Of a stretch of 64,000 bases of DNA, positions 3,550 through 18,782 are shown one piece after another. Each line of letters starts with the position of its first letter. The first letter of the stretch is position 1. Source of the DNA: a virus. The translations under genes and the position numbers were made by a program. Under the pieces are notes generated by a model that saw only the letters and a list, made by a program, of their open reading frames with translations, ran no database searches and was not told the DNA's origin. The DNA lies in IMG/VR virus record IMGVR_UViG_3300021478_000015, positions 92,984-156,983 of that record; one strand, written 5' to 3'.

Positions 3550-3744
3550 ATGACCCGTTGGATCATCGAAGTCTCCCATGATGGGGCCATCGATATCATG
3601 CGGAATGGCAAGGCCTTCGCTTATGACCTCGATGACTACGACGAGGCCTTTGCTCGTATCAAGAAGGACAAGCGCTATCAGAAGGGGGATAGAGTGGAGA
3701 TGGTTGATCCGGATGGATACCGGCGTAAGATCACGTCCCTGTGA
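3550..3744 (+). CDS. hypothetical protein
   Basis: ATG at 3550; stop overlaps the next GTG. Confidence 0.6.
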   Translation: MTRWIIEVSHDGAIDIMRNGKAFAYDLDDYDEAFARIKKDKRYQKGDRVEMVDPDGYRRKITSL

Positions 3745-4589
3745 AGTGGGCCTCGATAAAGCGTCCGATCATTGCCGCCGGGATTGTCGGATGCTTGATC
3801 GGCATCACCTTGCTGAGCCTGGACGTGACCAAGTCCACAGCCGCTCCCCAGTCGCACGCTGACCCGCTGCTGACCCTGGCCAAGGAGGTCATCAACCTGG
3901 AGGGTGGCACCGCCGTGGCCGCCGACTTCACCTTGATGGCCATCGGCCCGGTCACCGTCTCCGGCCCGGCCAACACCGCCGCGGTCCGTAATCAGCCGGT
4001 GCCGATCGGGACCTACCAGCTACGGGAGTCCGGCCCGGCCAACTACGTCCCCTCGATCTGGGAGTGCCTGGGCAGCTTCGTGTCGTCCACCAGCAACTCG
4101 GTGACCCTGGCCGAGGGCGACAACGCCACCTGCCTGATCACCAACACCTTCCGTCCTCCCACCACCACCACGACCACCACCACCGTGCCGGGCACCACCA
4201 CCACCACGGTGCCGGGGGCGACGACGACCACCACACCGGGTGAGACGACCACCACGGTGCCTCGGTCCACCACTACCGCTGTCCCGGCCACCACCGTGCC
4301 TGAGACTACGGTGCCGGGCGCGCCCACCACTACGCTGCCACCCGAGTTCACCGTGCCGACCGTGCCGGGTCAGACCACCACCACCGTGGCCGTCCCTCCT
4401 TTGCTGCCTCCTGCACCGGGGCCAGGCGCGCCTGCGGCCGCCGGGATCCCCCCGGCTACCCTTCCCCTGGCCTCCACCGGCAGCGATACTGGCCAGTACG
4501 CCGGGATCGGGGTCCTGGCCCTGTTGGCCGGACTGGGCTTGGTGGTCCTCGCCCGCGGCAGGAAGAAGAAGGTGGATGACCACGGCTGA
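3741..4589 (+). CDS. sortase-anchored (LAXTG-type) surface protein with prealbumin-like domain
   Basis: N-terminal TM/signal; LTLAKEVIN..DFTL..GTYQLRE..WEC..ATCLITN domain; Thr/Pro stalk; LPLASTG + TM + RGRKKK. Confidence 0.85.
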   Translation: MKWASIKRPIIAAGIVGCLIGITLLSLDVTKSTAAPQSHADPLLTLAKEVINLEGGTAVAADFTLMAIGPVTVSGPANTAAVRNQPVPIGTYQLRESGPANYVPSIWECLGSFVSSTSNSVTLAEGDNATCLITNTFRPPTTTTTTTTVPGTTTTTVPGATTTTTPGETTTTVPRSTTTAVPATTVPETTVPGAPTTTLPPEFTVPTVPGQTTTTVAVPPLLPPAPGPGAPAAAGIPPATLPLASTGSDTGQYAGIGVLALLAGLGLVVLARGRKKKVDDHG

Positions 4590-4785
4590 GATCCCAGACG
4601 GCTTCGAGGAGTGGCTGCACACCGGCATCGAAGCGGGTTACTGCTCCGAGGTGGTGTGCAACACCCATGATGGGCTGCCTTCGTCCGCAGCCGAGGACGC
4701 CGAGTGGGAGGCCGGGGGTGATCCCTGCGTCCCGGCGGTACGGCTGTTCTGGTCCATGGAGACGGGTCAGCGCACCGATGGCTGA
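4576..4785 (+). CDS. small phage protein with C/H motif
   Basis: FEEWL..GIEAGYCSEVVCNTHDGLP...DPCVP pattern. Confidence 0.65.
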   Translation: MTTAEIPDGFEEWLHTGIEAGYCSEVVCNTHDGLPSSAAEDAEWEAGGDPCVPAVRLFWSMETGQRTDG

Positions 4786-5011
4786 CCGGCCCGGCGAGGA
4801 CGAGCTATTGCAGAAGGTGGTGAAGGAGGCCGCCTTGAGGTCCGACACCGACCCCCAGGTCCATGCCGAGATCGAGATGGTCCACCAGATGATGGTCAAG
4901 ATGGTGAACGAGTTCGGGTGGATCGATGACGACGGCCACCCCCTGATCTACACCGCCGCCGCCCTGGCCATCACCCTGCACGATCCTATGGATGGCCACC
5001 CCTTCTTCTGA
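4778..5011 (+). CDS. hypothetical protein
   Basis: ATG at 4778 overlaps the previous gene; GC3-rich. Confidence 0.6.
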   Translation: MADRPGEDELLQKVVKEAALRSDTDPQVHAEIEMVHQMMVKMVNEFGWIDDDGHPLIYTAAALAITLHDPMDGHPFF

Positions 5012-5047
5012 CCTGTCCCTGGTCGAGCCAGACCCCCGAAGGTGTGA
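5012..5047 (+). promoter_or_regulatory. late-promoter-like motif copy 1
   Basis: CCTGTC-N11-CAG-N5-CGAAG-N3-TGA immediately before ATG 5048. Confidence 0.8.
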
Positions 5048-8000
5048 ATGAAGCACTACGCCGCCCTGGAGATCATCAGCGCTGAGTACGGCGATCAGCA
5101 CTCCCTCCGTCACCTGGCCCATCGGGCGGACTTCACCTACGCGCCACGTCCCGGCTACCTGTACGTCCGCTCCAGGGCCATCAGTTCACGCACGAATGAC
5201 AACTTCGATGACTTCCCGGCCGAGGAGATAGAGAAGGGCTACCGGTCGTTCATCGGGAAGCCAGTGTTCGTTAACCATGTCAACGAGGATCACAAGCGTG
5301 CTCGGGGTGTGGTCATCGATGCCGCCCTGCATCATGATGTGAATCCCAATGGTTCGCCGGATACATGGTGTGAAGTATTGATGGAAGTAGACGCACTACG
5401 CTTTCCGAAGTTGGCTCAAGCGATCGTCCAAGGTCATATCGATCGTACTTCCATGGGTGTTGACGTGGAGTACTCGATCTGTAGTGCCTGTGGTAATAAG
5501 GCCACGAACCCGGCGGAGTATTGTCGTCATATTCCGCAGATGAAGGGCTCGAAGATCGTCCGGCGGAATGCCGCCACCAACCGGCCAGAAGAGACTCTCA
5601 TCTTTGAGACCTGCTATGGGCTGAGCTTCTTCGAGAACTCGTTACTGGTCGAGGATCCCGCCGATCCCACGGCCTACTTCCTGGGCGTGGACGATCGTGG
5701 CCTCAGGATGGCCCAGAAGACCGCACATAGGAAGCTATGTCGGCAATGTCTCACTTCGTCATCATGTGCCGCGTACGGATGTGGGCGTAGCTCAGAGGGC
5801 CTGGGAGCTTTCGTGGCCAGCACACCGGGCAACTTCGACAAGATCCCTCAGCACCACTGGGATTACCTGTCCGATCTGGTGGACCGAGTGGGCCAGCGCG
5901 AGAAGACCCCCAAGGTGTGCTGGCAGGTGTTCTCGGCCATCGATCACAAGCTGGGCTACCCCCAGGAGTCCGGCTACTACCGGGGTGAGGGCCACTACTG
6001 GAATCGCCTGCCGGACGGCTCCATCCTCGATGCCAGCCATGATCAGTTCGAGGAGGACGACGACCCGGTGCGGATCTTCGCCCCTGGTGATCCCGAGCAC
6101 GGCCATTTTAAGACGGCTGTGCGCCACCAGGAGGGCCTGGGAGCCTTCGTGGCGGCCCATGACCTGGACGAGGCTGTGACCTCCTTCAAGCCCTATGCCG
6201 AAGAGCAAGGTTGGCATGATCCGACTTGCGTAGGTGGGCAATGCGACGTGGCCTCGACGGAGTTCGCCCAGCACCTCCATGAGCACGGCATCCCCCATGA
6301 GGTGGTGACCCACTATCCCGAGCCGGGTGGCCCCATGAGCCACAGCGTGGTCGAGGTCGGGGACCACACAGTGGACTGGACGGCTCGCCAGTTTGACCCC
6401 AAGGCGGACTTTCCTCACATCGAGCCCCATCACGTCACCCGCAGTCGCTGGCACCGCACCGAGCCCTACTACGGTGAGATCGAGTATGGCAAGGATTACC
6501 GAGAGGCGTCCTTAGCGGGTGATAAGTCCTGGATCAAAGAGGAGCATGACTACGAGGGTCGTCATGGGGAGCGCCGTCACATCACCCGCACCATGACGGG
6601 AGCATTGCCCACCCATCTGGTCCAGCACTTGATGGGTGTCAAGGGCGAGATACCCGGTGAGCATCGTAATAAGCAAGGTCAGCAATGGGAGGACTTCAAG
6701 TCCGACATCGCTCAGAACGGCATCAAGAACCCCATCTTTATCACCCAGGATCCGGGGGAGCGACCCAAGATCTCCGAGGGCAATCACCGCCGGGACGCGG
6801 CGGTGGAGCTTGGCCATCCCTACGTGCCGGTGGAGATGCGCTACTTCGGTCACGCCGAGCAGGATCCCGACAACCTGGAGGACAAGGCCCAGGCCCACTT
6901 CGATCGGGAGAACCAGATCCGCAGCTTGGGTACTCGCAGGCTCGCCCGTTACGAGCCCGAGCCCGACGCTCCCGAGGAGGGTGAGTACGAGAAGGAGCCC
7001 GATCCTTCGGGTTTCTTCCCCAACGGCATCGCCACCCGTTGGCGACAAGCGCATAAGCCGCTGGTGGCGGACGCCTTGCACGCCTGGAAGGGCGACCCCG
7101 TCAACGCTCTGACTCACTGGCACCACGAACTCAACGACGATCCCCAGCCTGACTCGGGCTCGGGCAAGCAGATGCGAGCCCAGTCCGGGGCTCTGCGCTG
7201 GGAACTTCAAAATAACTCCAAGACGTTCGGACGCAAGCTCTATCGAGGAGTGCCCACCGCCCAGGACCGCCTGCCCAAGGTGGGCGACATCATCGACCAT
7301 GACGACCGGCCGCGGGGCTACTCTTCCAACCGGGCCACGGCTTGGGCCTTCGCCCGCAAGTCGGGCTCCGACCACCTGCGCCGTCCCCTGGTCCCGGTCA
7401 CCTACCAGACCGCGCCGGGCACCCAAGGCCTGCGGATCAAGGACTACGGCACCGGCAGCGGTCTTGATCAGTCCGAGCAGGAGTACGTCCTCCATGGCCA
7501 GCATCAGGTCACCCACGTCGAGTCCACCGACAAGGGCCTCCATGTGCGGACCCGACCGTTACAGAGCTACACGGCCGGGCTCAGAGGCTTTGTGGCCGCA
7601 CGGGGCGATGACCCTGGCCTGGATGAGGCCCTGGACCAGTTGGGAGAGATCCTCTCCCGCCCTTCCCATGCTCCTCCCCCGAAGATCCTGCCCGAGGCCC
7701 ATGAGATGTACGGCGGCTACATCCATGAGCACCCTTCCGGTCACCTGCACGTCTCTGAGGCCCCTGGAGCGCTGTCTAAGCCCCTGGAGAAGCTCTACCG
7801 CATCGTTCACCCTAAGGAGTGGGAGGAGGCCCAGCAGAAGGGCTACCTGCAGTCCAACACGGCCTTCTCGCCGGGTTACACCAGGGCCTCGGCCCAGCCG
7901 GACGAACGCTGGCGGCGGCAATCGGCTGATCCCTCCGAGATTGCCCCCAAGGGCCACACCATAGAGATCGACTACCACCCCGATGACAACTGGCATGCCT

Positions 8001-11000
8001 CGGCCGAGGGCTACGCCGCCACCCGCTCGAAGATCCCGCTCAGCCGGGTCCGCAAGATGGCCAAGACCGAGGTCTCGGTGGCCGGGCTAGCAGTACTGGC
8101 CGCCGATACGGGCCGGGTGCTGATGCTGCAGCGCGCCAACCATGATGTCAAGGATCCGGCTGCGGGCACCTGGGAGTTCCCCGGTGGTCATCTCAACCCC
8201 GACGAAGCGCCAGTCGAGGGGGCTATACGGGAGTGGAAGGAAGAGCTTGGCTGCAAGCTGCCTGCCGGGCATGTCCAGGGCCATTGGATCTCGAAGAAGA
8301 TCTATCAAGGCTTCGTCTATGTCATCGAGCATGAGGACGAGGTTGACATAAACCACGATCATGAGAATCGCCAGGTCCTGAACCCCGATGATCCTGATGG
8401 GGATGAGATCGAGGTGGCGGCCTGGTTCGAGCCCAAGGACCTGCCCGACATGCCTGCCCTGCGCGACGAGGTCAAGAGCGGCACCGACTGGTCCAAGCTC
8501 AAGCTCAAGAAGACGGCCGGACTCGAAGCATTCCTGGCCGCCTACTACCATGTCAGCCCGCACTGGTTGCCATCAGGGACCAAGCTCACCCCCGGCGGGG
8601 GCCGTCGCAACTTCGGGGGCCGGGCCGACAGTGACGCCGTGTACATGGCTGGGTCAGAGGGCGAGGCCGAGCAGTGGGGCAACGCCATGGCCCAGGACGA
8701 GCCCACTGGCCATCTGCACATCTACGAGGTCCAGCCTCACGGCCCGGTCACCCACAGTCAGGGTCATGTGACCATGGACGACTTCCACGATGTGATCGGC
8801 CAGCACGCTGCCCCAGCGGCCACCATCGTCCGCCATCACTACTCCTACGATCCCGAGAGCGGGGAGGCCTTCTATCCCCATGAGGCCGGGCTTGGAGCCT
8901 TGGCGGCGGCCGAACCCACCTTCTACCACGGGACCAGCGACGATCTAGAGCCGGGTAGCCAGCTTTCGGTGGAGGAGGCCACTCGGCGGCAACCAGAGGT
9001 GGCCAAGGCCTTAGAGGATCGGGGTGGTCAGCACATCAGCTTCACCACCGACTACCAGCACGCCCAGATGTACGCCGGGGTCCGCGCCCAGACCCGCGGC
9101 GGGACGCCTCGGGTGTATCGGGTGCAACCAACCGGGGGCTACGAGCCCAACCCCGCCGACGAGAAGTGGCGGGAGGGCAAGCCGCCCATGTCCTTCAGGA
9201 CCAAGGAGCCGGTCACCGTCCTGGGGGAGGCCACGCCACCGAAGCGGCGACGGAAGCAGAGCGGACTGATGGCCTTTGTGGCTGTCAATGCTTCGGATGA
9301 GGTCCCGCCTGAGCCTGGTCTCTCGCCTATCCCTGAGGGCCACGTCCGGCTGTTCCACCAGACCGGCCCGAAGCACGTCGAGTCCATCCGTCAGAACGGG
9401 CTGACCATGGAGCATGCTCGGGCCACCGGAGGGCCGGTCGGGGTGTGGGCCAGCCACGGCACCCGCTTCTATCCCGGCCAGGACCACGCCACGGTGGAGT
9501 TCCACGTCCCCTACAAGGAGCTACAGGACACCGCCGGAGGCCAGTCGCCCCACCGCCATCAGCCCCAGGAGGACTGGGAGCAGTCCAACCACCACACCCT
9601 GGTCATCCCCCGCTCGATCAAGCCCCATGAGATCACCGCCATCCATGAGCCCTGGCACGATCGCTATCGGTACTTCCACAACGAGGGCATGACCGACGAG
9701 GTCAAGCAGGGTGGCTTCGACAACCTGAAGGACATCCCTGACTACGGCCGGGCCATCGACAAGATCAAGAGCGAGGCCAGCCTGCACCTGGCCATGAACA
9801 CCGAGGACGAGGTACCCCCTCGACTGGGCACCGCGCCCATCCCGGAGGGCCATGTGCGCCTCTATCACCACACTTGGTCCAAGAACGTGCCCAGCATCCG
9901 CGAGCACGGTCTCCTGGCCGAGATGGGAAAAGGTGACAGTGGCAAGGGCTACGGCAATGAGCTATCGGCCGGGGTATGGGCGGCTAGTCAGCATCCCGAG
10001 CCTGATCCCCAGAGCGACCGGCATGTGATCGAGTTCCACGCCCACCCCTCCGAGATCGATGTCAACGGGCCTTCTCCTGGCCAGGATGTCCATAAGTGGC
10101 AGCAAGGTGATCACAACGTCTTGATGCGGGGCTCGGTCAAGCCCGAGAACATCCTGGCTATCCATGCCCCCTGGCATACCGCTTATCATCAGATCAACGA
10201 TGATCCCCGCGACCGGGAGGATGTCAAGAACGGCAAGCTGGACTGGGTCCATAACGATCCCTCCATGCCGGGCGTGAGCAAGGCCGTTCACAAGATCCAG
10301 GCCGAGGGGGCGGCCCGGCCCAACATCGGCAAGGGCTGGTGGCTCACCCCCGAGGGCAAGAAGATCGGCGTGTACGACCACTATGAGACGACGCCTGGCA
10401 TGGCTCGTCAGATGATCCGCCCGCACATGGCGGAGAGTGGTCAGGTTAGGGTCCGTAGTTTCAACAATCAACTCAACGTGCAAACGGCCCGTCCCTTCAC
10501 CGATAAGCAGCGTCAGAGTTTGCTGATGGATGCGGACCGACATAGCCGCATGTTTGTGGACGTGCTCCACCCCGATACTGAGGAGTCCATCCACTCCGAG
10601 TCCGGGGGTCCCGAAGAAGCCGATCGCATGCTGGCCCGAGCCCATCGCGCTGCCATCCCCCATGAGGCCAAGAGGGCGGTGCAGGGTGCTCGAAAGGTCA
10701 CTCAGGTGCCCCTGCAACACATCCTCACTCACACCGAGCCCACCGACATGGCTAGCTACGGCCACACCTGGCCGGACGCCTTCCGCGACATCGAGGAGAA
10801 CCATGAGGACTTCGCCCCCAAGCATTGGGGCAAGTTCCTCGATCACGTCCAGGCTCACGGCATCCAGACTCCGGTGGTGATCCTGCATGACGGGGAGCGC
10901 CAGAAGCTGTTCTCCGGCCATCACCGGGTGTGGGCCGCCCACCGTTTGGGCCTCAGCCATGTCCCCGCCTATCACACCGACGATCCCTCCGAGGCCTATG

Positions 11001-14000
11001 ACTTGATGGACGAGCAGGCCGCTCATGAAAGCGATTGGCACAAGCAGGCTGGGCTATCGACCTTCATAGCCATCGAGGCTCACCCTGACAGCTACCATAC
11101 GCTGTATCGAGGATTGCACTTCGGTGAGATTGAGCCACACAATATCGATGACTTCCACAAGAATCCCCAGAAGTACATGGGCCATGAGAAGAATGTTGGG
11201 ATCCATTGGACCGACAATCCGGACTCGGCCTACAACTTTGCCACCGATAGAGATCCCGAAGGCTGGGCGCATGAGGGAGATCCCGATGAGGAGCAGGGAC
11301 ATCTCCACGGCGTGATCCTGGAGGGAAGAGTCCATCCTCGCCACATCATCGACCCGGAGTCTGAGGAGGGCCAGGGCTATGCCATGTCCGACGCCATCCT
11401 GGGCCATGAGCATCCCGAGAACGAGGTGACGGTGCGCGGCGATGCCCGTGTGCATGTCCACAAGATCCACGCCATCACCGAGCACCCCGAGACCGGTGAG
11501 AATCGTTGGACCACCCACAACGTCTCAGAGCATCACTTGGCCGTTCAATATGAAGCCCTCGGTCCTTATCGCAAGATCAACGTCGAAGACATCAAGCGCA
11601 ACATGATCATTCGTCCCAGTTGGGGGCAACATGATTGGACCCGTACTACTGGTGATGCTCAGCATGATCCCGATCATCCTGACGACACTTCGCGTGAGTT
11701 TCCCGATGAGGATGATCCCGATCACGTCAAGATGTACGTGATCCCCATTCACCGGACCTTCACGCCCCATCAGCCTGAGGGGACTCCCTATCACGTCCGG
11801 GTTCGCAAGCAGGCCGGATTGGAGGGCTTCATAGCGGCCCAGGGACCTACCTACTACCAGGGGCGGCGCAGCGATGGCAGCCGGGCTCAGATCGGCGGAG
11901 AGCGGGGTCAGGGCTGGGACGAGCATATGTTCGTGTCCCACGATCCCGAGGTGGCCCGCCTGTACGCCGGGCATCAGGGCAGCGTCCACGCCATCCACAT
12001 GGCCCCCGACACCAAGGTGCTCAAGATCGACCGGGCCAATGGCCCCACCTGGAAGCGCTACGCCAAGGGCACCGAGGGCCAGGGCCTGCTGGACGAGGCC
12101 AAGACCATCGTGGCCCGTGCCGGAGGAGAGGGCTACCACGTTGTGGAGTTCCACCGGCCGCACGATTACATCGGCCACGTCATCCTGGACCGATCCAAGG
12201 TTCAGGGCGAGGAGCATATGGCCGCCGGTCACGGTGATCTCATAGGACGAGGATTACACCTCAATCTCTCCGATGAAGACGGCGATCATGAGCTAGCCAA
12301 TAAGATCTGGGATCATCATCCTGATGCGGCTCGACATCTCCTCCACACTATCCATGACATAGGCGGTGGTCACGCCGGGGCTTGGTGGGGAAGACTTAAT
12401 CCTCAACATCGTGAGTTCAGCACCCATGAGGTCAAGGATTACGCCGAAGGAGGCGAAGGCGGCGAGGAGTTGATGAACAAGTGGCATCCTGAGGCCCATG
12501 ATCCCGAGGAAGGCAATCACGGTTTGCACGGTGGTGTGGATGTCGCCTTGATCGCTCACAACACCCATGGCTGGGACCCCGAGAAGAATCCTCTGGTGGC
12601 GGGCGGGCTCATGGGTAGCTCCTACATCCCCGAGGGCCAGGGCAAGGACATGCCCCTGCACTCGATCCATGTCAACGACGGTAGGGGCTGGCGACGGCTG
12701 CCTCACCCTCCTGGGCTGACCGTGACCGCGGCTGACGATGACGAGGATTGGCGGGGCCTGCACCAGCCCTCGATGGGGCCGCCTATCCACAACCTGCTGG
12801 AGAAGGACGAGGACGGCGGCCAGCTAGCCCCTGACGACATCTACACCCACATGCACTACTACACCGATGGCGAGGCCAACTGGGACAACGAGTCCCACGC
12901 CGCTATCCGCAAGGCCCGTGGTGACATGCCGCTACACCAGCGCCCGGCTGCACCGGCCAAGATGTTCTCGGAGCGAGCCGGTGGGGGCGAGATGAGCCCG
13001 GCCCGAGAAGCTGAAAGCGATGAGGCCTTCGCCCAGCGCCAGCAACGGCGCAAAGACGGTGAGCACCACGTCACCATCTACCGGGCTGCCCCCAAGGGGC
13101 TCAAGTCCATCGGGCCAGGGGATTGGGTCACGCCCTCGCCCAGCTACGCCCGCGACCACGCCCGTCAGGCCAGCGACCCCAAGAAGGACTGGCCGGTCTA
13201 CAAGGCCTCGGTCCCGGCCAAGCATGTGCGCTGGGCCGGGGACTCCCTCAACGAGTTCGGATATTCGGGGCCTGCGGTTAAGCCCACTTACCACACCAGG
13301 GGTGGCACCCAGGCCGAGCGTCTGGCCGCATTCGTGGTCGAGGCTGATCAGCCTTACGCCGGGGGCTACCAGTTCAAGTTCCGCAAGGCCCAACCCAACT
13401 CCATGGAGGCTCAGGCCGATAAGACGCTGAACTATCACCGCCTGGATGCCTTCCATGAGAACACCCAGGATCTTACCCAGGGTCGCGGTGGTCATGCAGG
13501 CTTTCTACTCTGGCATCACAAGACCGGTGAGATCGGCAGTATCGAGACCCTGCCCGAGCATCAGCGTCGAGGGCTGGCCACCGAGATGCTGGACCAGGCC
13601 CGCCAGATCTCCGCCACCACCCGAGGGGTCAAGCCCCCGAAGCACTCCAATCAGCGCACCGACGCCGGGGAGGCCTGGGCACGCTCGACTGGCGACCGGC
13701 TGCCTCGCCGGGTGCAATCCCTGGCCGCCTTCGTGGCTGCCCTGGACCCCTCCGAGATCTCTGAGACCTCACCGGAGGAGTTCCACCGCAACTTCTCCCG
13801 GTCCATCGCCGGTAGCCCCTTCGAGCGTCATGTCACCAACCACACCCCGGAGGAGATCCGCTCCGAGGGTATGAAGCCGCTTACTATCAACCATGGTACG
13901 AGTGGTGTCCTGATCCATGATCACGGGGATGGTAGGATAGAGCCGACAGGACTGTACAACGATCGGGAGAAAGGAGTGAAGGGTGCCGGTATAGATCTTC

Positions 14001-14398
14001 TCAAGCATGCCGTTGAGCATCACGGGGCGAACTACTTTGAGTGTTACGGCCCGCAACTGCCGAAGATGTACGAGAAGCTCGGGTTCCATACCACCGAGAA
14101 GTATCCGTTCGATCCCTCCCAGGCCCATCCGGACTGGGATTACGAGCAGCACAACCACCCTGATTACCACATCATGAGACCGAACGATCCCCAGCAGAAG
14201 ACGGCCGCGCTCCCGGCTGACGTGATCAGTCTTTCCGACGTGGACTGGGACGACCCGGCGGCGGTGGCCGCGTTCAAGGCCCAGACCGAAGCTGAGCTTG
14301 ACGCTGAGGGCGGCCAGGACTGGGTCCACATGACGCCCGAGCAGAAGGAAGCCTCCTGGCAGGCAGCCCTGGCTCAACTCGGGGTCCATCTCCCCTAG
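5048..14398 (+). CDS. prohead (capsid maturation) protease fused to a multi-enzyme polyprotein (ART, Nudix, ParB, GNAT, papain-like modules)
   Basis: N-terminal ~220 aa has PVFVNH / TSMG / CSACG..YCRH / FFENS..DPAD of a prohead protease. Downstream motifs: perfect Nudix box (GGHLNPDEAPVEGAIREWKEELG), GNHR and GHHR ParB motifs, LYRG..SS..EQE, FYHGT, HQRRGLAT. Located just upstream of the scaffold and capsid genes. Confidence 0.85.
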   Translation: MKHYAALEIISAEYGDQHSLRHLAHRADFTYAPRPGYLYVRSRAISSRTNDNFDDFPAEEIEKGYRSFIGKPVFVNHVNEDHKRARGVVIDAALHHDVNPNGSPDTWCEVLMEVDALRFPKLAQAIVQGHIDRTSMGVDVEYSICSACGNKATNPAEYCRHIPQMKGSKIVRRNAATNRPEETLIFETCYGLSFFENSLLVEDPADPTAYFLGVDDRGLRMAQKTAHRKLCRQCLTSSSCAAYGCGRSSEGLGAFVASTPGNFDKIPQHHWDYLSDLVDRVGQREKTPKVCWQVFSAIDHKLGYPQESGYYRGEGHYWNRLPDGSILDASHDQFEEDDDPVRIFAPGDPEHGHFKTAVRHQEGLGAFVAAHDLDEAVTSFKPYAEEQGWHDPTCVGGQCDVASTEFAQHLHEHGIPHEVVTHYPEPGGPMSHSVVEVGDHTVDWTARQFDPKADFPHIEPHHVTRSRWHRTEPYYGEIEYGKDYREASLAGDKSWIKEEHDYEGRHGERRHITRTMTGALPTHLVQHLMGVKGEIPGEHRNKQGQQWEDFKSDIAQNGIKNPIFITQDPGERPKISEGNHRRDAAVELGHPYVPVEMRYFGHAEQDPDNLEDKAQAHFDRENQIRSLGTRRLARYEPEPDAPEEGEYEKEPDPSGFFPNGIATRWRQAHKPLVADALHAWKGDPVNALTHWHHELNDDPQPDSGSGKQMRAQSGALRWELQNNSKTFGRKLYRGVPTAQDRLPKVGDIIDHDDRPRGYSSNRATAWAFARKSGSDHLRRPLVPVTYQTAPGTQGLRIKDYGTGSGLDQSEQEYVLHGQHQVTHVESTDKGLHVRTRPLQSYTAGLRGFVAARGDDPGLDEALDQLGEILSRPSHAPPPKILPEAHEMYGGYIHEHPSGHLHVSEAPGALSKPLEKLYRIVHPKEWEEAQQKGYLQSNTAFSPGYTRASAQPDERWRRQSADPSEIAPKGHTIEIDYHPDDNWHASAEGYAATRSKIPLSRVRKMAKTEVSVAGLAVLAADTGRVLMLQRANHDVKDPAAGTWEFPGGHLNPDEAPVEGAIREWKEELGCKLPAGHVQGHWISKKIYQGFVYVIEHEDEVDINHDHENRQVLNPDDPDGDEIEVAAWFEPKDLPDMPALRDEVKSGTDWSKLKLKKTAGLEAFLAAYYHVSPHWLPSGTKLTPGGGRRNFGGRADSDAVYMAGSEGEAEQWGNAMAQDEPTGHLHIYEVQPHGPVTHSQGHVTMDDFHDVIGQHAAPAATIVRHHYSYDPESGEAFYPHEAGLGALAAAEPTFYHGTSDDLEPGSQLSVEEATRRQPEVAKALEDRGGQHISFTTDYQHAQMYAGVRAQTRGGTPRVYRVQPTGGYEPNPADEKWREGKPPMSFRTKEPVTVLGEATPPKRRRKQSGLMAFVAVNASDEVPPEPGLSPIPEGHVRLFHQTGPKHVESIRQNGLTMEHARATGGPVGVWASHGTRFYPGQDHATVEFHVPYKELQDTAGGQSPHRHQPQEDWEQSNHHTLVIPRSIKPHEITAIHEPWHDRYRYFHNEGMTDEVKQGGFDNLKDIPDYGRAIDKIKSEASLHLAMNTEDEVPPRLGTAPIPEGHVRLYHHTWSKNVPSIREHGLLAEMGKGDSGKGYGNELSAGVWAASQHPEPDPQSDRHVIEFHAHPSEIDVNGPSPGQDVHKWQQGDHNVLMRGSVKPENILAIHAPWHTAYHQINDDPRDREDVKNGKLDWVHNDPSMPGVSKAVHKIQAEGAARPNIGKGWWLTPEGKKIGVYDHYETTPGMARQMIRPHMAESGQVRVRSFNNQLNVQTARPFTDKQRQSLLMDADRHSRMFVDVLHPDTEESIHSESGGPEEADRMLARAHRAAIPHEAKRAVQGARKVTQVPLQHILTHTEPTDMASYGHTWPDAFRDIEENHEDFAPKHWGKFLDHVQAHGIQTPVVILHDGERQKLFSGHHRVWAAHRLGLSHVPAYHTDDPSEAYDLMDEQAAHESDWHKQAGLSTFIAIEAHPDSYHTLYRGLHFGEIEPHNIDDFHKNPQKYMGHEKNVGIHWTDNPDSAYNFATDRDPEGWAHEGDPDEEQGHLHGVILEGRVHPRHIIDPESEEGQGYAMSDAILGHEHPENEVTVRGDARVHVHKIHAITEHPETGENRWTTHNVSEHHLAVQYEALGPYRKINVEDIKRNMIIRPSWGQHDWTRTTGDAQHDPDHPDDTSREFPDEDDPDHVKMYVIPIHRTFTPHQPEGTPYHVRVRKQAGLEGFIAAQGPTYYQGRRSDGSRAQIGGERGQGWDEHMFVSHDPEVARLYAGHQGSVHAIHMAPDTKVLKIDRANGPTWKRYAKGTEGQGLLDEAKTIVARAGGEGYHVVEFHRPHDYIGHVILDRSKVQGEEHMAAGHGDLIGRGLHLNLSDEDGDHELANKIWDHHPDAARHLLHTIHDIGGGHAGAWWGRLNPQHREFSTHEVKDYAEGGEGGEELMNKWHPEAHDPEEGNHGLHGGVDVALIAHNTHGWDPEKNPLVAGGLMGSSYIPEGQGKDMPLHSIHVNDGRGWRRLPHPPGLTVTAADDDEDWRGLHQPSMGPPIHNLLEKDEDGGQLAPDDIYTHMHYYTDGEANWDNESHAAIRKARGDMPLHQRPAAPAKMFSERAGGGEMSPAREAESDEAFAQRQQRRKDGEHHVTIYRAAPKGLKSIGPGDWVTPSPSYARDHARQASDPKKDWPVYKASVPAKHVRWAGDSLNEFGYSGPAVKPTYHTRGGTQAERLAAFVVEADQPYAGGYQFKFRKAQPNSMEAQADKTLNYHRLDAFHENTQDLTQGRGGHAGFLLWHHKTGEIGSIETLPEHQRRGLATEMLDQARQISATTRGVKPPKHSNQRTDAGEAWARSTGDRLPRRVQSLAAFVAALDPSEISETSPEEFHRNFSRSIAGSPFERHVTNHTPEEIRSEGMKPLTINHGTSGVLIHDHGDGRIEPTGLYNDREKGVKGAGIDLLKHAVEHHGANYFECYGPQLPKMYEKLGFHTTEKYPFDPSQAHPDWDYEQHNHPDYHIMRPNDPQQKTAALPADVISLSDVDWDDPAAVAAFKAQTEAELDAEGGQDWVHMTPEQKEASWQAALAQLGVHLP

Positions 14399-14551
14399 TG
14401 GTTAGAACAACCCTACTGGGAAGGGTTGTGCCATATTGCGGTGCCCCAGGGAGGAGGGACCCCGAAGGGTGTCAGTCCCCATTGGACGGTGCTCAGGCCA
14501 AATGCATTCCCCGGAGCCTCTAGGAGGTCGTTGACGGGTTGCTCTAACCAC
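14398..14551 (+). ncRNA. candidate rod-like structured RNA or inverted-repeat element
   Basis: 14398-14413 GTGGTTAGAACAACCC pairs 15/16 with 14536-14551 GGGTTGCTCTAACCAC; nested inner stems. Confidence 0.45.
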
Positions 14552-14592
14552 AACTGACAATAGCATCTCGGGCCGGGGGATGTGGGCGCGGG

Positions 14593-14628
14593 CCTGTCGG
14601 TGACCGGGTCAGGGCGACGAAGGGATGA
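14593..14628 (+). promoter_or_regulatory. late-promoter-like motif copy 2
   Basis: CCTGTC-N11-CAG-N5-CGAAG-N3-TGA, 1 nt before ATG 14630. Confidence 0.8.
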
Positions 14629-14629
14629 G

Positions 14630-16813
14630 ATGTCGGTCTTCACCGCCAAGGAGCAGATCTCGGTCCCGCCCGAGGTGGACACCATGCGGGAGGAGATCTG
14701 CCCGGTCTGCGGGTCGGATGACTCCTACGTGGGCGACAAGTGCTCGGTGTGCGGCTTCGAGAAGCCCCCGTCGATCTTCATGGACCCCGACACCTCTCTG
14801 GCTCAGAACGTCAACCTGCGCCAGGAGGACCAGGAGGACCAGAACGACGATGGGGCCGGAGAGCTTCAGTGCCCCAACTGCGGTGAGACCTTCCCCTCCG
14901 CCGAGGCCCTGAACGCGGCCGGGGATCCCCATCTGGCCCCCGCCGCCCAGACCATCCCGGCCGAGCAGGACCTGGAGGTCCCAGAAGGGGCGGAGGAGGA
15001 GCCTGAGCCCCTCCAGAGCCCGGACGACAACCAGATGGCCCCGCCGCCCCCAGCGGGCCAGGAGGGGCCTCCTGAGCCCCCTGAGAACGAAGATGAGCAA
15101 GTCCCGCCCGGCCAAGAGGAGGATGAGGATGAGCAGCCTCCGCCTGAGGGCGCAGTCCCGCCGGAGGAGGAGCCCGAGGAGGAGGGTGGCCCACCTGCTG
15201 AGCTAGCCGGACCCCCTGAGCCCGGTGGAGCCCCCGAGGAGGAGTCTCCCGAGCAGGGCCAGGTCGAGCAGGTCGATCCCGAGGCCATGGCCGAGCAGCA
15301 GTACGCCGCCGACCAGGAGGGCATGCAGCAGACCGGCTACGAGGAGGGCGACATCTGCCCCAACTGTGGCCAGGGCCTGCTCCAGCCCCTCGGCACCGAG
15401 AACGCCGTGCCGGAGCCGGGTCAACCGCCCGAGGTCGAGGGCTCTGACGAGATGCCCCAGGGCGGTCCTCGACCCTTCCCGCCCGGCGTGCCCGGCGATG
15501 ACGAGCCCGAGCCCGAGGACGAAGAGGAGGAGGGTCCTCCCTCAGCGGCTGCTCCGGACCAGGAGGGCGGCGAAGCCGAAGACGAGCAGGAAGACGACGA
15601 AGACGAAGAGGACGAAGACGGGGACCAGCCTCCCTGGCTGAACAAGAAGAAATCAGCAGTTCTTTTTAACTACCAAACCAGCAGCATCGAAAGGAGCCTC
15701 AGTACGATGCCTACCCGCCCCCGCCGCCCAGTGCAGCGCCAAGCTACCACTCAGACCCAGCCCGAGCCGACGCCGCGTAGCTCGGTCCGTACCGCCCTGC
15801 ACGCCTCGCTCAACGCCCAGGCCAACGTCCTGCGCCGTATGACCGCCGCCTGCCAGCAGGAGCGTCTCCTGCGCCTGGCCGCCGAGGCCCGCATCTTTAC
15901 CCTGGAGCGGCAGATGTTCCGCTTCGCCACCTTGGCCGGAGCCGACGCTGACCCCGAGCTTCGAGGCATCAACGAGGAGGGCTATCGGGTCCATGCCTCC
16001 TTGATGGCTCGCGCCGCCTCCTTGCACACCGCCGACCAGAGGGATCCAGCCCAGCCGGTGCCCGAGGGCGCACCCGAGGCCCCCATCGTCACCGAGCAGC
16101 AGGCGGCCGAGCCCGCGGCGCGCACCGACGTGACCCAGCTTGGAGCCACCCCGGTGACCGATGTGTCGGCCGACGCCACCATCGCCGTGGACCAGCCCTA
16201 CGGCACCGAGGCCTTCGAGCCCATGAACCTCAACGAGGTGGACGTGACCGCACCCGTACAGAACACCCAGGGGCACCTGCCGCCTGAGCAAACCATCATC
16301 CCCGTCGAGGTGCGTGTCGGTGACCCCGACGATCCCCAGCCCTCCTACGGCTGGACCCTTGATGGTGGCAATCCGTCCGGCCAGACCGGAGGGTCGGTGG
16401 GATCCGGGCAGCCCACTGCAGGCGCGCCGGGCTCGCCTCCGGGGGTCATGCCGGGCACCAGGGCATCCCGTAACGACGGCCAGGTGTCCCTGGGTGCGCT
16501 GCGCCTGGCTCGTCTTCGCATCCAGGCTGGTATTGCCCCGGCCAACCAGGACGACCTGTCCATCGCCGCGAGCATCCAGGACAACCCGGATATGACCGTC
16601 GAGGCCGTCAACACCGAGATCAAGACCCTGACCCAGGTGCTCTCGGTCCAGGTCCCCAACGGCCGGGTGGCCTCGGCCAACCGTCGCCTGGTCCCTCGCT
16701 CGGCTACCACCCAGAGCCCGGCTCCATCCCTGGCTCCCACCGAGATGGAAGGCCCCATCCGCGCCCATGCCTCCACCGGGCAAGTAACCGCGGATGAGAT
16801 GCTCTTCGAGTAG
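14630..16813 (+). CDS. capsid scaffolding-like protein (acidic, Zn-ribbon motifs)
   Basis: CPVCG..CSVCG and CPNCG x2; long E/P/D-rich region; helical C-terminus; lies between protease and capsid genes; start moved to ATG 14630 after the promoter motif. Confidence 0.7.
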   Translation: MSVFTAKEQISVPPEVDTMREEICPVCGSDDSYVGDKCSVCGFEKPPSIFMDPDTSLAQNVNLRQEDQEDQNDDGAGELQCPNCGETFPSAEALNAAGDPHLAPAAQTIPAEQDLEVPEGAEEEPEPLQSPDDNQMAPPPPAGQEGPPEPPENEDEQVPPGQEEDEDEQPPPEGAVPPEEEPEEEGGPPAELAGPPEPGGAPEEESPEQGQVEQVDPEAMAEQQYAADQEGMQQTGYEEGDICPNCGQGLLQPLGTENAVPEPGQPPEVEGSDEMPQGGPRPFPPGVPGDDEPEPEDEEEEGPPSAAAPDQEGGEAEDEQEDDEDEEDEDGDQPPWLNKKKSAVLFNYQTSSIERSLSTMPTRPRRPVQRQATTQTQPEPTPRSSVRTALHASLNAQANVLRRMTAACQQERLLRLAAEARIFTLERQMFRFATLAGADADPELRGINEEGYRVHASLMARAASLHTADQRDPAQPVPEGAPEAPIVTEQQAAEPAARTDVTQLGATPVTDVSADATIAVDQPYGTEAFEPMNLNEVDVTAPVQNTQGHLPPEQTIIPVEVRVGDPDDPQPSYGWTLDGGNPSGQTGGSVGSGQPTAGAPGSPPGVMPGTRASRNDGQVSLGALRLARLRIQAGIAPANQDDLSIAASIQDNPDMTVEAVNTEIKTLTQVLSVQVPNGRVASANRRLVPRSATTQSPAPSLAPTEMEGPIRAHASTGQVTADEMLFE

Positions 16814-17113: not shown

Positions 17114-17749
17114 GTGATTCGTGTTCCCATCTCCAGGTCGTACATCAAGCGGACGATCCGGCCCAACTATGGGTGGACGCAAGCCACGCCCAAGTCCGGG
17201 TATCTGGATCCGGCTTGGAACCGCTCCGTTCCCATCTGGCCCGGCATGGCCTTCATGCGGACCACGGGCGCGTCCGGTTACACCGGCCCGTATCAGACCT
17301 TCGGAGCCACTTCAGGTGGTCCCAACTACAGCCTTCTCAACGCCACTGGCGTCCCGGCTGGTCTGGTCGGTAACTACATCGGCGGCGAGGGCATCGATGA
17401 GCTTCTCGATACCGGTGTGTCGGCCTTGGCCGTGTGGGTCCTCGACCCTGACGCCGAGTTCGAGATCCTGGCCCCGGCCTTCGACGCCAACCTGACCTGG
17501 ACCGACCCTGGCAACGGCACTGACGCCCTGGTCTACGCCCGCACCGCCAACCTGGGTGGAGCGGTAGGTCTCAACGGTCTCGGTGGAGCCATCGCAGGAG
17601 GCAGCTACACCGGCACCTACGGCCTGCAGGGTCAGCTTGTGACCGCCGCGGACGCCAACAAGTCCACCCAGCCGGTGGCCCGGCTCATCGCCGTGAACTC
17701 GAACATCTCCATCACTGTCGGCGGCCTGATGGTCCGCTCCGGCTTCTGA
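17114..17749 (+). CDS. capsid decoration/cement protein
   Basis: AGGAGG RBS; directly upstream of the major capsid gene; Gly-rich beta protein (IWPGM..., VWVL..DAEFEILAPAF). Confidence 0.65.
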   Translation: MIRVPISRSYIKRTIRPNYGWTQATPKSGYLDPAWNRSVPIWPGMAFMRTTGASGYTGPYQTFGATSGGPNYSLLNATGVPAGLVGNYIGGEGIDELLDTGVSALAVWVLDPDAEFEILAPAFDANLTWTDPGNGTDALVYARTANLGGAVGLNGLGGAIAGGSYTGTYGLQGQLVTAADANKSTQPVARLIAVNSNISITVGGLMVRSGF

Positions 17750-17789: not shown

Positions 17790-18782
17790 ATGAGCATGGT
17801 TGCCACCGCAGCGGGGCTAGCGCCGAAGCGAGCCAAGAAGTCGGACGATTACGTCCAGGAGATCCTCAAGCGCCGCGGTGGGGACGGCAACGTTCCCTCC
17901 CTGACCCATGAGGCCAAGGTCCGCAAGCTCTCGTTGATCCTCCAGGACGAGGTCAACGGCATCCGCCGCCTGGGCGTGGGCATGGTCGGCCCTATCCAGC
18001 TAAAGCTGCGCTACCAGGGCATCGTCCGCAACGTGCTGATCGAGGACCCGGTCACGCCGGGCACCCCGGTGGAGTACGACGTGTGGGACGACCTCGGCCA
18101 GGCCTACCTCATGAGTGGCACCGAAGGCGAGGTCCGGGTCACTCCCTTCGAAGGCAAGCGCCTGCCCATCCGGTTCTGGCGTATCGCCTCCCGTCCGGCC
18201 ATCCGCAAGGAGGACCTGTTCTACCTCCGCATCAATGCAGTCGAGCAGGCCCAGGACGAGACCAAGCAGGCCATCATGAAGCAAGAGGACAGCCGGATGA
18301 TGGTGATCATCCAGGCCGCCCTCACCGACTACGCCTCCCGGCCGGACCATGTGGTCACCCCCAACCACACCGTGTACGAGGCTTCGGGGTACTTCACCCC
18401 GCAGTCCATGTACACCGCGGTGGCCCAGTCCGACATGCACGAACTGCCTGCCGGGCGCATGTTGGTCAACCCCTTTGACTACCGGGACTTCTTCCGCTGG
18501 GACATCAACACCACCGGCTGGGCCTTCAAGGACCGTATCGTGGCCGGGGAGCAGATCCAGAGCTTCGGTGAGTTCCAGTTCCAGCGTTCCATCATGGTCC
18601 CCTCGGGCCAGATGTTCCTGCTTCCCAACCCTGACTTCCTGGGTGTGTTCCCGGTCCTGTACTCGCTCGATGTGGAGGAGAACCACAACGTCGAGGCCTT
18701 CTGGAAGGGCTGGGTGTTCGATGAGATGGTGTCGATGGCCATCCTCAACCCTCGGGGTATCACCACCGTTCTCAAGGGCTAA
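17790..18782 (+). CDS. major capsid protein (HK97 fold)
   Basis: AAGGAG RBS; 330 aa; strongly biased codons; GPIQLKLRYQGIVRNVL..YDVWDDLGQAY and GWVFDE..ILNPRG recalled from Bxz1-type capsid proteins. Confidence 0.85.
   Translation: MSMVATAAGLAPKRAKKSDDYVQEILKRRGGDGNVPSLTHEAKVRKLSLILQDEVNGIRRLGVGMVGPIQLKLRYQGIVRNVLIEDPVTPGTPVEYDVWDDLGQAYLMSGTEGEVRVTPFEGKRLPIRFWRIASRPAIRKEDLFYLRINAVEQAQDETKQAIMKQEDSRMMVIIQAALTDYASRPDHVVTPNHTVYEASGYFTPQSMYTAVAQSDMHELPAGRMLVNPFDYRDFFRWDINTTGWAFKDRIVAGEQIQSFGEFQFQRSIMVPSGQMFLLPNPDFLGVFPVLYSLDVEENHNVEAFWKGWVFDEMVSMAILNPRGITTVLKG

Follow-up and report, generated by a model that had tools for sequence, protein, structure and literature searches.

The final 64 kb of a single-contig virus genome of 156,983 bp (IMG/VR record IMGVR_UViG_3300021478_000015, positions 92,984 to 156,983; CheckV completeness 100%) contains an open reading frame (ORF), P0001, which lies at positions 5048-14398 of the + strand and encodes a protein of 3116 amino acids (aa) and ~345 kDa. 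This 64-kb stretch is referred to here as the window, and coordinates are those of the window unless stated otherwise. P0001 opens with a prohead protease domain, continues through ~19 further modules and is punctuated by ten copies of a short conserved linker peptide. Its architecture, its relatives and the precedent of other phages lead us to favor, with moderate confidence, the view that it is a head-protease cargo polyprotein, which would be packaged in the procapsid, processed by its own protease and ejected into the host.

The polyprotein gene and its protease domain

P0001 is preceded by a Shine-Dalgarno sequence (GAAGG, 5-6 nt 5' of the ATG) and maintains a GC content at third codon positions (GC3) of 0.77 across 9.3 kb. 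The ORF is real and was assembled independently in four soil-metagenome studies. Matching sequence is present in the soil metagenomes of all four, their contigs cover the ORF at at least 99% identity, and in the best run three contigs tile positions 4500-15000, with both breaks spanned by contigs of another study and no joints reported. Since contigs from several studies tile the ORF without joints and the longest DNA repeat inside it is only 29 nt, an assembly chimera, a possibility which the first-pass annotation of this DNA had itself raised, is excluded. Contigs of two soil studies (X1 and X2) carry an extra G after position 13993, which is absent from a third (X3). This insertion at 13993-13994 would shift the frame and lead to a stop ~7 codons on, giving a protein of ~2990 aa with module 19 halved, and it may represent a population variant that loses the last module. 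The reading frame of the window at 13993 is backed by 67% identity to an internal module of the related protein P0008 that spans the site.

The placement of P0001 as a single ORF within the head operon, proposed in the same annotation, is borne out by its surroundings. In the 5' to 3' direction the protease-polyprotein gene is followed by genes for a scaffold-like protein, a cement protein and the major capsid protein, an order that is the same in two relatives, and the portal gene sits 30 kb upstream of the polyprotein.

The N-terminal domain (5048-5725, +; aa 1-226, core 31-217) has the assemblin/gp21 fold and ends at a K-T-A sequence. Residues 31-209 match phrog_2774 (4e-61) and phrog_18299, 'head maturation protease' (2e-22), and the earlier call of a prohead protease at this position stands. 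His77 and Ser135, the latter being the serine of T-S-M-G, are invariant among 43 sequences and, judging from their order and spacing, probably form the catalytic pair. The domain also carries a zinc-ribbon insert (Cys145/148/159-His161). Its family membership holds at the level of fold and PHROG only and does not extend to Pfam Peptidase_S77: residues 1-250 had no Pfam match at E<=1, and Peptidase_S77 (PF03420, the T4 gp21 family) was not matched anywhere in the genome, the control for that profile likewise giving no match. A genome-wide profile search returned no match to Peptidase_S78, S77 or ClpP and, in a genome rated 100% complete by CheckV, the N-terminal domain is the only candidate maturation protease of the phage. 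A second protease at the C terminus of a 1045-aa protein (genome positions 58610-61747) was considered and rejected, the BLAST match being a zinc-ribbon segment.

Distant tblastn matches to the protease were found in jumbo phages, in proteins annotated as head maturation or prohead core proteases. The closest named relatives belong to >200 cluster C mycobacteriophages and include Catera gp94 (1369 aa, 46% identity), which is annotated as hypothetical. In the Catera genome (L001, NC_008207), gp94 (7932-12041), like its homologues in the other cluster C records, opens with the prohead-protease domain and lies two genes 5' of the capsid gene, with only gp95 between them.

Linker peptide and candidate cargo modules

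A 7-residue linker, [GSR]-L-x-[AGT]-[FL]-[VILA]-[AV] with the core G-L-x-[AG]-F-[VIL]-A, occurs ten times in the polyprotein, against 0.018 copies expected (2000 shuffles, maximum 1), and its copies are located at module boundaries. The strict form was counted eight times in the polyprotein ORF and four times in all other open frames of the genome of at least 100 codons. All on the + strand, the copies are linker 1 (5798-5818, aa 251-257; G-L-G-A-F-V-A), linker 2 (6134-6154, aa 363-369), linker 3 (7577-7597, aa 844-850), linker 4 (8519-8539, aa 1158-1164; preceded by K-K-T-A), linker 5 (8888-8908, aa 1281-1287; variant G-L-G-A-L-A-A), linker 6 (9263-9283, aa 1406-1412), linkers 7 (11051-11071, aa 2002-2008) and 8 (11816-11836, aa 2257-2263), both preceded by K-Q-A, linker 9 (13319-13339, aa 2758-2764; variant R-L-A-A-F-V-V) and linker 10 (13718-13738, aa 2891-2897; S-L-A-A-F-V-A). 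Approximately four degenerate copies lie at further boundaries, near aa 487, 1581, 2560 and 3053. When 39 linker sites from seven giant proteins of this type were aligned, L and F were invariant and the final A was present in 90%.

The codons of the copies differ at synonymous sites, which indicates that selection acts on the linker as a peptide. The linker was also considered as a DNA recombination repeat and rejected in that role, the longest shared stretch being 23-29 nt at 69-96% identity with synonymous differences. The sequence on its N-terminal side is basic and has A, E or S as its last residue, with K-T-A or K-Q-A directly before several linkers of P0001, and the following domain begins 1-6 residues past the motif. 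Of 153 family members, 54 have K-[TVQ]-A, frequently in the form A-S-K-x-A, immediately past the protease core (4.9 expected). K-x-A marks both the C-terminal boundary of the protease and the N-terminal side of the linkers; the broader motif [KRH]-x-A-x is only weakly enriched in the polyprotein (10 against 5.7, a count reached in 13 of 300 shuffles). Sister clades have linkers of their own, namely G-L-Q-A-F-A in P0008 and P0009, S-L-L-Q-H-F-A in P0128 and P0050, and H-T-A-S-K-[VT]-A in P0078, where K-[TVQ]-A is found again as the repeated linker.

Peptides that recall the linker were also seen outside the polyprotein. In the capsid proteins of four related phages (window 17790-17850; L003:21278; L004:22954; L001:12618), a small residue followed by G-L occupies residues 8-11, and K-K-S-D-D-Y or a near variant follows it; the Catera sequence at this place, G-L-G-R-F-A, is a complete linker-like motif. 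The N-terminal residues concerned may form a short propeptide that the prohead protease also cuts. Two neighbouring stand-alone genes that lie outside the window (genome 52626-54289; L005:626-2289) both open with M-[TN]-H-L-R-Q-A-W. One encodes a 136-aa ADP-ribosyltransferase (ART) of the Arr family (Pfam 1.4e-5) and the other a 418-aa protein without a family assignment, and the L-x-x-x-aromatic-A spacing of their shared peptide is that of the sister-clade linkers S-L-L-Q-H-F-A. The peptide may be a portable capsid-targeting tag. A loose motif scan for N-terminal tags at the loci of two relatives gave only noise.

Independent support was obtained for ten of the ~19 modules downstream of the protease, and at least ten supported domains from five superfamilies lie within this one polypeptide. 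The identified modules are mostly centred on NAD+ and ADP-ribose, comprising ARTs of three subfamilies and a Nudix hydrolase, together with ParB-like and GNAT domains. The Nudix, Arr, GNAT, ParB-like and R-S-ExE modules retain intact catalytic motifs. The Nudix hydrolase (module 6; 8060-8518, +, as are all modules; aa 1005-1157) matches Pfam NUDIX at 8.6e-20 (71.5 bits against a cut-off of 21.1) and a MutT-like PDB profile at 5e-6, and retains the box G-x5-E-x7-R-E-x-x-E-E-x-G. Module 8 (8909-9262, aa 1288-1405) matches Pfam Arr-ms at 1.9e-13 (50.9 bits against 25), PDB 2hw2 at 4e-4 and NCBIfam rifampin_ARR at 3.4e-11; since the last score (43) falls under the equivalog cut-off (130), this module is a member of the Arr family and not the rifampin-resistance equivalog. 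The adjacent Arr-like ART, module 7 (8540-8887, aa 1165-1280), reaches 4.5e-5 with Arr-ms, its 24.0 bits standing against a 25-bit cut-off.

Module 4 (6944-7576, aa 633-843) is a probable R-S-ExE ART resembling ADPrib_exo_Tox, in which the R, S-x-S and E-x-E motifs can be read; hmmscan gives it no Pfam match, and its feature look-alikes in the Atlas are 82-97% PF03496 (score 0.96, 176-183 features in common). Modules 3 (6512-6943, aa 489-632) and 12 (10676-11050, aa 1877-2001) are ParB/Srx-like. Both match Pfam ParB_N (0.005 and 0.003, respectively) at 17-18 bits, under the 26.3 cut-off, and both match PHROG ParB families (1e-7 to 1e-5 for module 3), module 12 also matching TIGR00180 (1e-6). 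They carry the motifs G-N-H-R and G-H-H-R and are paralogous (hhalign 96.9%). Module 18 (13340-13717, aa 2765-2890) is a GNAT acetyltransferase by Pfam Acetyltransf_1 (4e-6; 27.5 bits against 20.7). The Nudix label, the two ParB/Srx labels, the two Arr-like labels, the ART at aa 633-843 and the first GNAT, all given in the first-pass annotation, are in this way supported by profiles or look-alikes.

Further labels are supported by fold or by motif. Modules 9 and 10 (9284-10312; aa 1413-1580 and 1587-1755), paralogues separated by a degenerate linker, had been called Tpt1/KptA-like. They do have a minimal ART fold with the conserved N-terminal His-x-Thr strand, and their top matches in Foldseek and VIA are KptA, Tpt1 and DarT, but they show neither a sequence match to PF01885 nor the N-terminal winged-helix lobe of Tpt1/KptA. 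Module 13 (11072-11542, aa 2009-2165), an R-[S/T]-ExE ART by motif alone, has in its alignment an invariant R in L-Y-R-G, H-W-T and E-x-E, in keeping with the ART label it had received, and has no Pfam, PHROG or PDB profile match.

The remaining nine modules are unassigned. Modules 1 (5819-6133, aa 258-362), which has Cys, His and Asp, and 2 (6155-6511, aa 370-488), which has a homologue in P0004, gave weak YunG matches (E 6e-4, under the cut-off and with no PHROG match, and E 0.023, respectively). Module 5 (7598-8059, aa 851-1004) has no Pfam or PHROG match and no homologue among 238 collected proteins, module 11 (10313-10675, aa 1756-1876) has no family match and is kept in eight giants, and module 14 (11543-11815, aa 2166-2256) has no Pfam or PHROG match. 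Modules 15 and 16 (11837-12727; aa 2264-2392 and 2393-2560) have no matches and few homologues; a homologue search over aa 2009-2560 found only eight proteins, none with a Pfam family attributable to those modules. Module 17 (12746-13318, aa 2567-2757), preceded by a degenerate linker, is a widespread viral domain (phrog_2579, 6.7e-24) whose Atlas look-alikes are viral hypothetical clusters (0.92) and which has no significant PDB match. Module 19 (13739-14197, aa 2898-3050) matches phrog_2563 and is a possible GNAT, its best PDB profile match being to a GNAT at E 0.24, with no Pfam match. It is followed by a C-terminal tail and stop codon (14198-14398, aa 3051-3116) that opens with K-T-A. Ten modules had no match in PHROGs, the homologues of modules 13, 15, 16, 17 and 19 had none in Pfam, NCBIfam gave no further assignment, and PDB profile searches with modules 13, 17 and 19 gave no significant match. 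No profile confirms the labels of two papain-like domains, a DUF952-like, an ART-PolyVal-like and a 'degenerate ART' domain, an ART-like domain at aa 2567-2757 and a second GNAT, all of which had been proposed for this set. Only two pairs of modules are detectable paralogues, and the array appears to have grown by accretion of unrelated domains and not by tandem duplication.

Protease-insert-scaffold layout and module shuffling

The protease family comprises 2340 representatives at 50% identity, with total lengths of 250 to >2400 aa; nearly all of them have the protease at the N terminus, and the extensions behind it vary in length. In 118 of 150 family representatives, a homologue of the 743-aa scaffold-like protein encoded downstream of P0001 lies within the same polypeptide as the protease, and the insert between the two measures 0-1277 aa (median 376). 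With the layout protease-[variable insert]-scaffold-like in these 118 proteins, the region behind the protease can be regarded as a general cargo slot. The scaffold part is introduced by a junction motif, [AS]-[AG]-[SL]-R-K-[LV]-A-[YF]-G-E-x-x-A-P (E in 89% and P in 100% of 84 sequences), which resembles the hydrophobic-x-Glu sites of gp21-type proteases and in two proteins is directly preceded by a copy of the linker.

This layout suggests a family-wide arrangement like that of herpesvirus pUL26 (assemblin-linker-scaffold) or P2 gpO, in which an N-terminal protease is likewise fused to the scaffold, with cargo inserted between the two. In those systems self-cleavage at defined sites releases the protease, with Ala at P1 in herpesviruses. 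They differ in that the insert considered here may reach ~2900 residues and in that the scaffold is a separate ORF in the clade of P0001. Such a protease-insert-scaffold arrangement provides a more concrete loading route than the simple fusion to the protease that had been proposed before.

The scaffold-like protein of this phage (14582-16813, +; 743 aa) contains zinc ribbons, an acidic low-complexity tract and a conserved C-terminus. Its ORF is in the same frame as the giant ORF with three stops between them; stop-codon read-through from one into the other was rejected on account of these stops, and the scaffold part became a separate ORF in this clade. The real start of the scaffold-like gene may be the ATG at 14630. 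The untranslated gap between the two genes would then be 230 nt (14399-14629), the equivalent gap in the relative L004 being 31 nt. An 8-bp inverted repeat (ACAACCCT ... AGGGTTGT) lies immediately past the polyprotein stop.

Nine giant relatives of 1917-3310 aa, several of them on independent ~155-kb metagenomic contigs, have the protease, the linker and many modules in common with P0001, and the order of the modules differs between them. Of the breakpoints of BLAST similarity, 24.5% lie no more than 12 aa from a linker, compared with a random value of 6.0% (maximum 8.3%), a four-fold enrichment. One left flank and its linker can be joined to different modules in different genomes, as is the case for the flank of linker 9 in P0003, P0005 and P0006. 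Modules thus appear to be gained, lost and reordered at the linkers, and since the giants reorder their modules and breakpoints are enriched there, the 'expandable cassette array' of the first-pass annotation is a fair description now that the locus has been compared across relatives.

Further downstream, the head genes of the window include a cement (decoration) protein, Phage_cement_3 (17114-17749, +; PF23968 9.8e-25, phrog_2783), and the major capsid protein (17790-18782, +; phrog_2522 9.5e-93, 55% identity to Catera gp96). Just upstream of the head genes, positions 3741-4589 (+) encode a 282-aa protein with an N-terminal membrane or signal segment and long Thr/Pro-rich repeats. Its C-terminus reads L-A-S-T-G, followed by a hydrophobic stretch and a basic tail, which is the actinobacterial sortase (LAxTG) cell-wall sorting signature.

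Proposed packaging and processing, and alternative explanations

If P0001 is a head-protease cargo polyprotein, it would be produced late and co-assembled into the procapsid core by means of its protease domain and the adjacent scaffold-like protein. After assembly of the shell, the protease would cut at or next to the ten linkers and at the K-T-A that ends its own domain, and would in this way free itself and about ten cargo proteins, each made up of one to four domains. Since there are only ten strong linkers, ~11 products are predicted, several of them multi-domain, and not the ~20 single enzymes previously envisaged. The likeliest scissile bond would lie between [KR]-[KQ]-x-[A/E/S] and the G-L with which the linker begins, so that every product would carry the hydrophobic G-L-x-x-F-x-A as a tag at its N terminus; alternatively, the bond after F-[VI]-A could be cut. 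The cargo would remain in the head and enter the host with the DNA, where it could modify host macromolecules or disarm NAD+-based defences. In evolutionary terms, the interval from protease to scaffold would have served as the cargo slot. In a broader form, which we put forward tentatively and rate as somewhat short of probable, a large group of actinophage-like myoviruses would use the post-protease interval as a general and evolvable platform for loading cargo. Any domain placed there and flanked by a short portable peptide (K-x-A followed by G-L-x-x-F-x-A in this clade, different motifs in sister clades) would be co-assembled, freed by the protease and injected, and stand-alone genes bearing that tag would supply additional cargo.

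Cleavage, packaging and ejection are all inferred; the literature yielded no usable virion proteomics or N-terminal sequencing for cluster C phages. Several observations weigh against the reading of P0001 as a packaged and self-processed polyprotein. The linker-type motif is absent from the extensions in 130 of 150 related proteases, so that the linker is not a family-wide recognition site; the residue preceding G-L varies (A, E, S or Q), and no register suits all three of the clade-specific linkers. Nor do the capsid and portal proteins of the phage, or its other large proteins from the head region, contain the full motif, with which the capsid N-terminus has only G-L in common. There is in addition a problem of stoichiometry, because a 345-kDa chain on every copy of the protease would take up much of the head volume, and nine modules (1, 2, 5, 11, 14, 15, 16, 17 and 19) are without a supported function. 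Finally, five of the nine giants terminate in a linker copy plus 1-13 residues, which would not be expected of a pure separator and raises the possibility that the linker is a docking or targeting tag besides, or instead of, a cut site. The capsid G-L, the peptides of the stand-alone genes and the C-termini of the giants all point to such an additional role, which the linker may have. A complex prediction with the protease and a 35-residue linker alignment gave no answer (score 0.01) and speaks neither for nor against binding.

Taken to its conclusion, this line of thought makes P0001 an uncut or minimally cut giant polyvalent protein, in which the linkers are hydrophobic peptides for docking or targeting that, by binding to the scaffold, the portal or the inside of the capsid, hold the chain, or each module, in the head, much like encapsulin cargo-loading peptides or the T4 capsid-targeting sequence. 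Besides the terminal copies in the giants, the linker-like peptide at the start of the stand-alone enzymes of the same phage fits such an explanation, as does the hydrophobic character of the motif and its position abutting the next domain, 1-6 residues before the first strand, and full-length transfer is known for some polyvalent proteins (PMC5512222). We nevertheless consider it unlikely: the K-x-A side of the linkers is common to the boundary of the protease domain, which is conserved across the family; in the fused relatives the scaffold part has to be gone from the head by the time DNA is packaged, and its removal implies that the chain is cut at some point; and the tail would be a difficult exit for a chain of 345 kDa. 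Processing could also take place in the cytoplasm, with the enzymes freed late in the producing cell and only the protease entering the procapsid. In that cell the enzymes would modify components of either the phage or the host and so, for instance, keep progeny DNA safe or switch off the signals of abortive infection. The location of the gene in a late head operon agrees with this, the first linker directly past the protease domain could allow the cargo to be shed before assembly, and in this clade the separate ORF of the scaffold-like protein means that the cargo is no longer physically tied to the scaffold. However, in 118 of 150 relatives an insert between protease and scaffold must enter the procapsid along with them. 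Prohead proteases, moreover, are normally activated only within the assembled procapsid, as in T4 and HK97. Late-made takeover enzymes would also bring the greatest benefit when taken along to the next cell (PMC5512222, PMC9503650), and we judge unpackaged processing to be quite improbable. An artefact or a decaying gene, whether a chimera or a string of dead domains that is open by chance, could draw on the one-base insertion after 13993, which would truncate the last module in the contigs of two studies, and on the nine modules without a known family. It is essentially refuted by the joint-free tiling of contigs from four studies at at least 99% identity, by the GC3, the intact catalytic motifs and the lack of any internal DNA repeat >29 nt, and by the nine giant relatives on independent ~155-kb contigs.

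The packaged, self-processed polyprotein that we favor has several precedents. Polyvalent proteins have 2-15 domains and are predicted to be packaged in the head, cleaved by a peptidase within the same chain and injected (Iyer, Burroughs, Anand, de Souza and Aravind, 2017; PMC5512222), and like them P0001 combines ART, GNAT, ParB-like and Nudix-type domains with a peptidase in one large chain encoded by a virion or late gene. Their usual peptidase, however, is a zincin-like MPTase, the assemblin-like type being rare and 'always at the C termini' (PMC5512222), whereas P0001 has ~20 domains and an N-terminal protease of the assemblin/gp21 fold that is at the same time the maturation protease of the phage itself; that paper describes neither a conserved peptide repeated between modules nor shuffling at such a peptide. 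A second candidate head-packaged polyvalent protein of this phage looks to be a 1476-aa protein encoded directly after the portal gene (genome 65534-69964; L005:13534-17964), which contains a 2H/LigT phosphoesterase and DUF7178 and is partly similar to Catera gp93. A Nudix domain fused to a capsid-processing serine peptidase, and so likewise an effector joined directly to a head-maturation protease, has been interpreted as pointing to packaging (Iyer et al., 2022; PMC9503650, section 3.5.2). That description, given in one sentence and for a single effector, includes no array, linker motif or protease-insert-scaffold layout (PMC9503650). In phiKZ (gp175) and SPN3US (gp245), numerous proteins inside the head are processed by a gp21-like protease and subsequently ejected (PMC5694885), but these substrates are separate genes, mostly non-enzymatic paralogues, and are cut at x-x-Glu (PMC5694885).

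What P0001 adds to these systems is an N-terminal maturation protease that leads a ~19-module array, a clade-specific linker, shuffling at the linkers and a family-wide protease-cargo-scaffold layout. It extends the polyvalent proteins rather than founding a new class. Phage T4 packages Alt and the internal proteins IPI-III, which are processed by gp21, with a short N-terminal peptide, itself processed by the protease, directing cargo to the core. The presence of enzyme cargo, including an ART, in the head for injection would be shared with T4, where it is known from genes that are separate, whereas here it is proposed for a single protease-led chain. The cleavage sites would also differ, T4 cutting after Glu in [L/I]-x-E and the candidate P1 residues of P0001 being mostly Ala or Glu.

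In summary, a protein recorded as hypothetical in the genomes of >200 cluster C mycobacteriophages, such as Catera gp94, receives a functional assignment from this analysis. The conserved linker offers a concrete and testable rule for how cargo is defined and released, and the protease-insert-scaffold layout explains how cargo could reach the procapsid and, together with the linker, suggests a way to load chosen proteins into heads. If the proposed mechanism is true, one gene would deliver roughly ten ready-made enzymes at DNA entry, at least five to six of them ARTs from three subfamilies and one a Nudix hydrolase. This would be among the densest known arsenals against the host or against NAD+/ADP-ribose-based immunity, and it would provide a catalogue of uncharacterised effector folds. 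Should the broader platform also be real, it would be to DNA phages what polyproteins are to RNA viruses, as well as a naturally occurring, programmable system for filling capsids with proteins.

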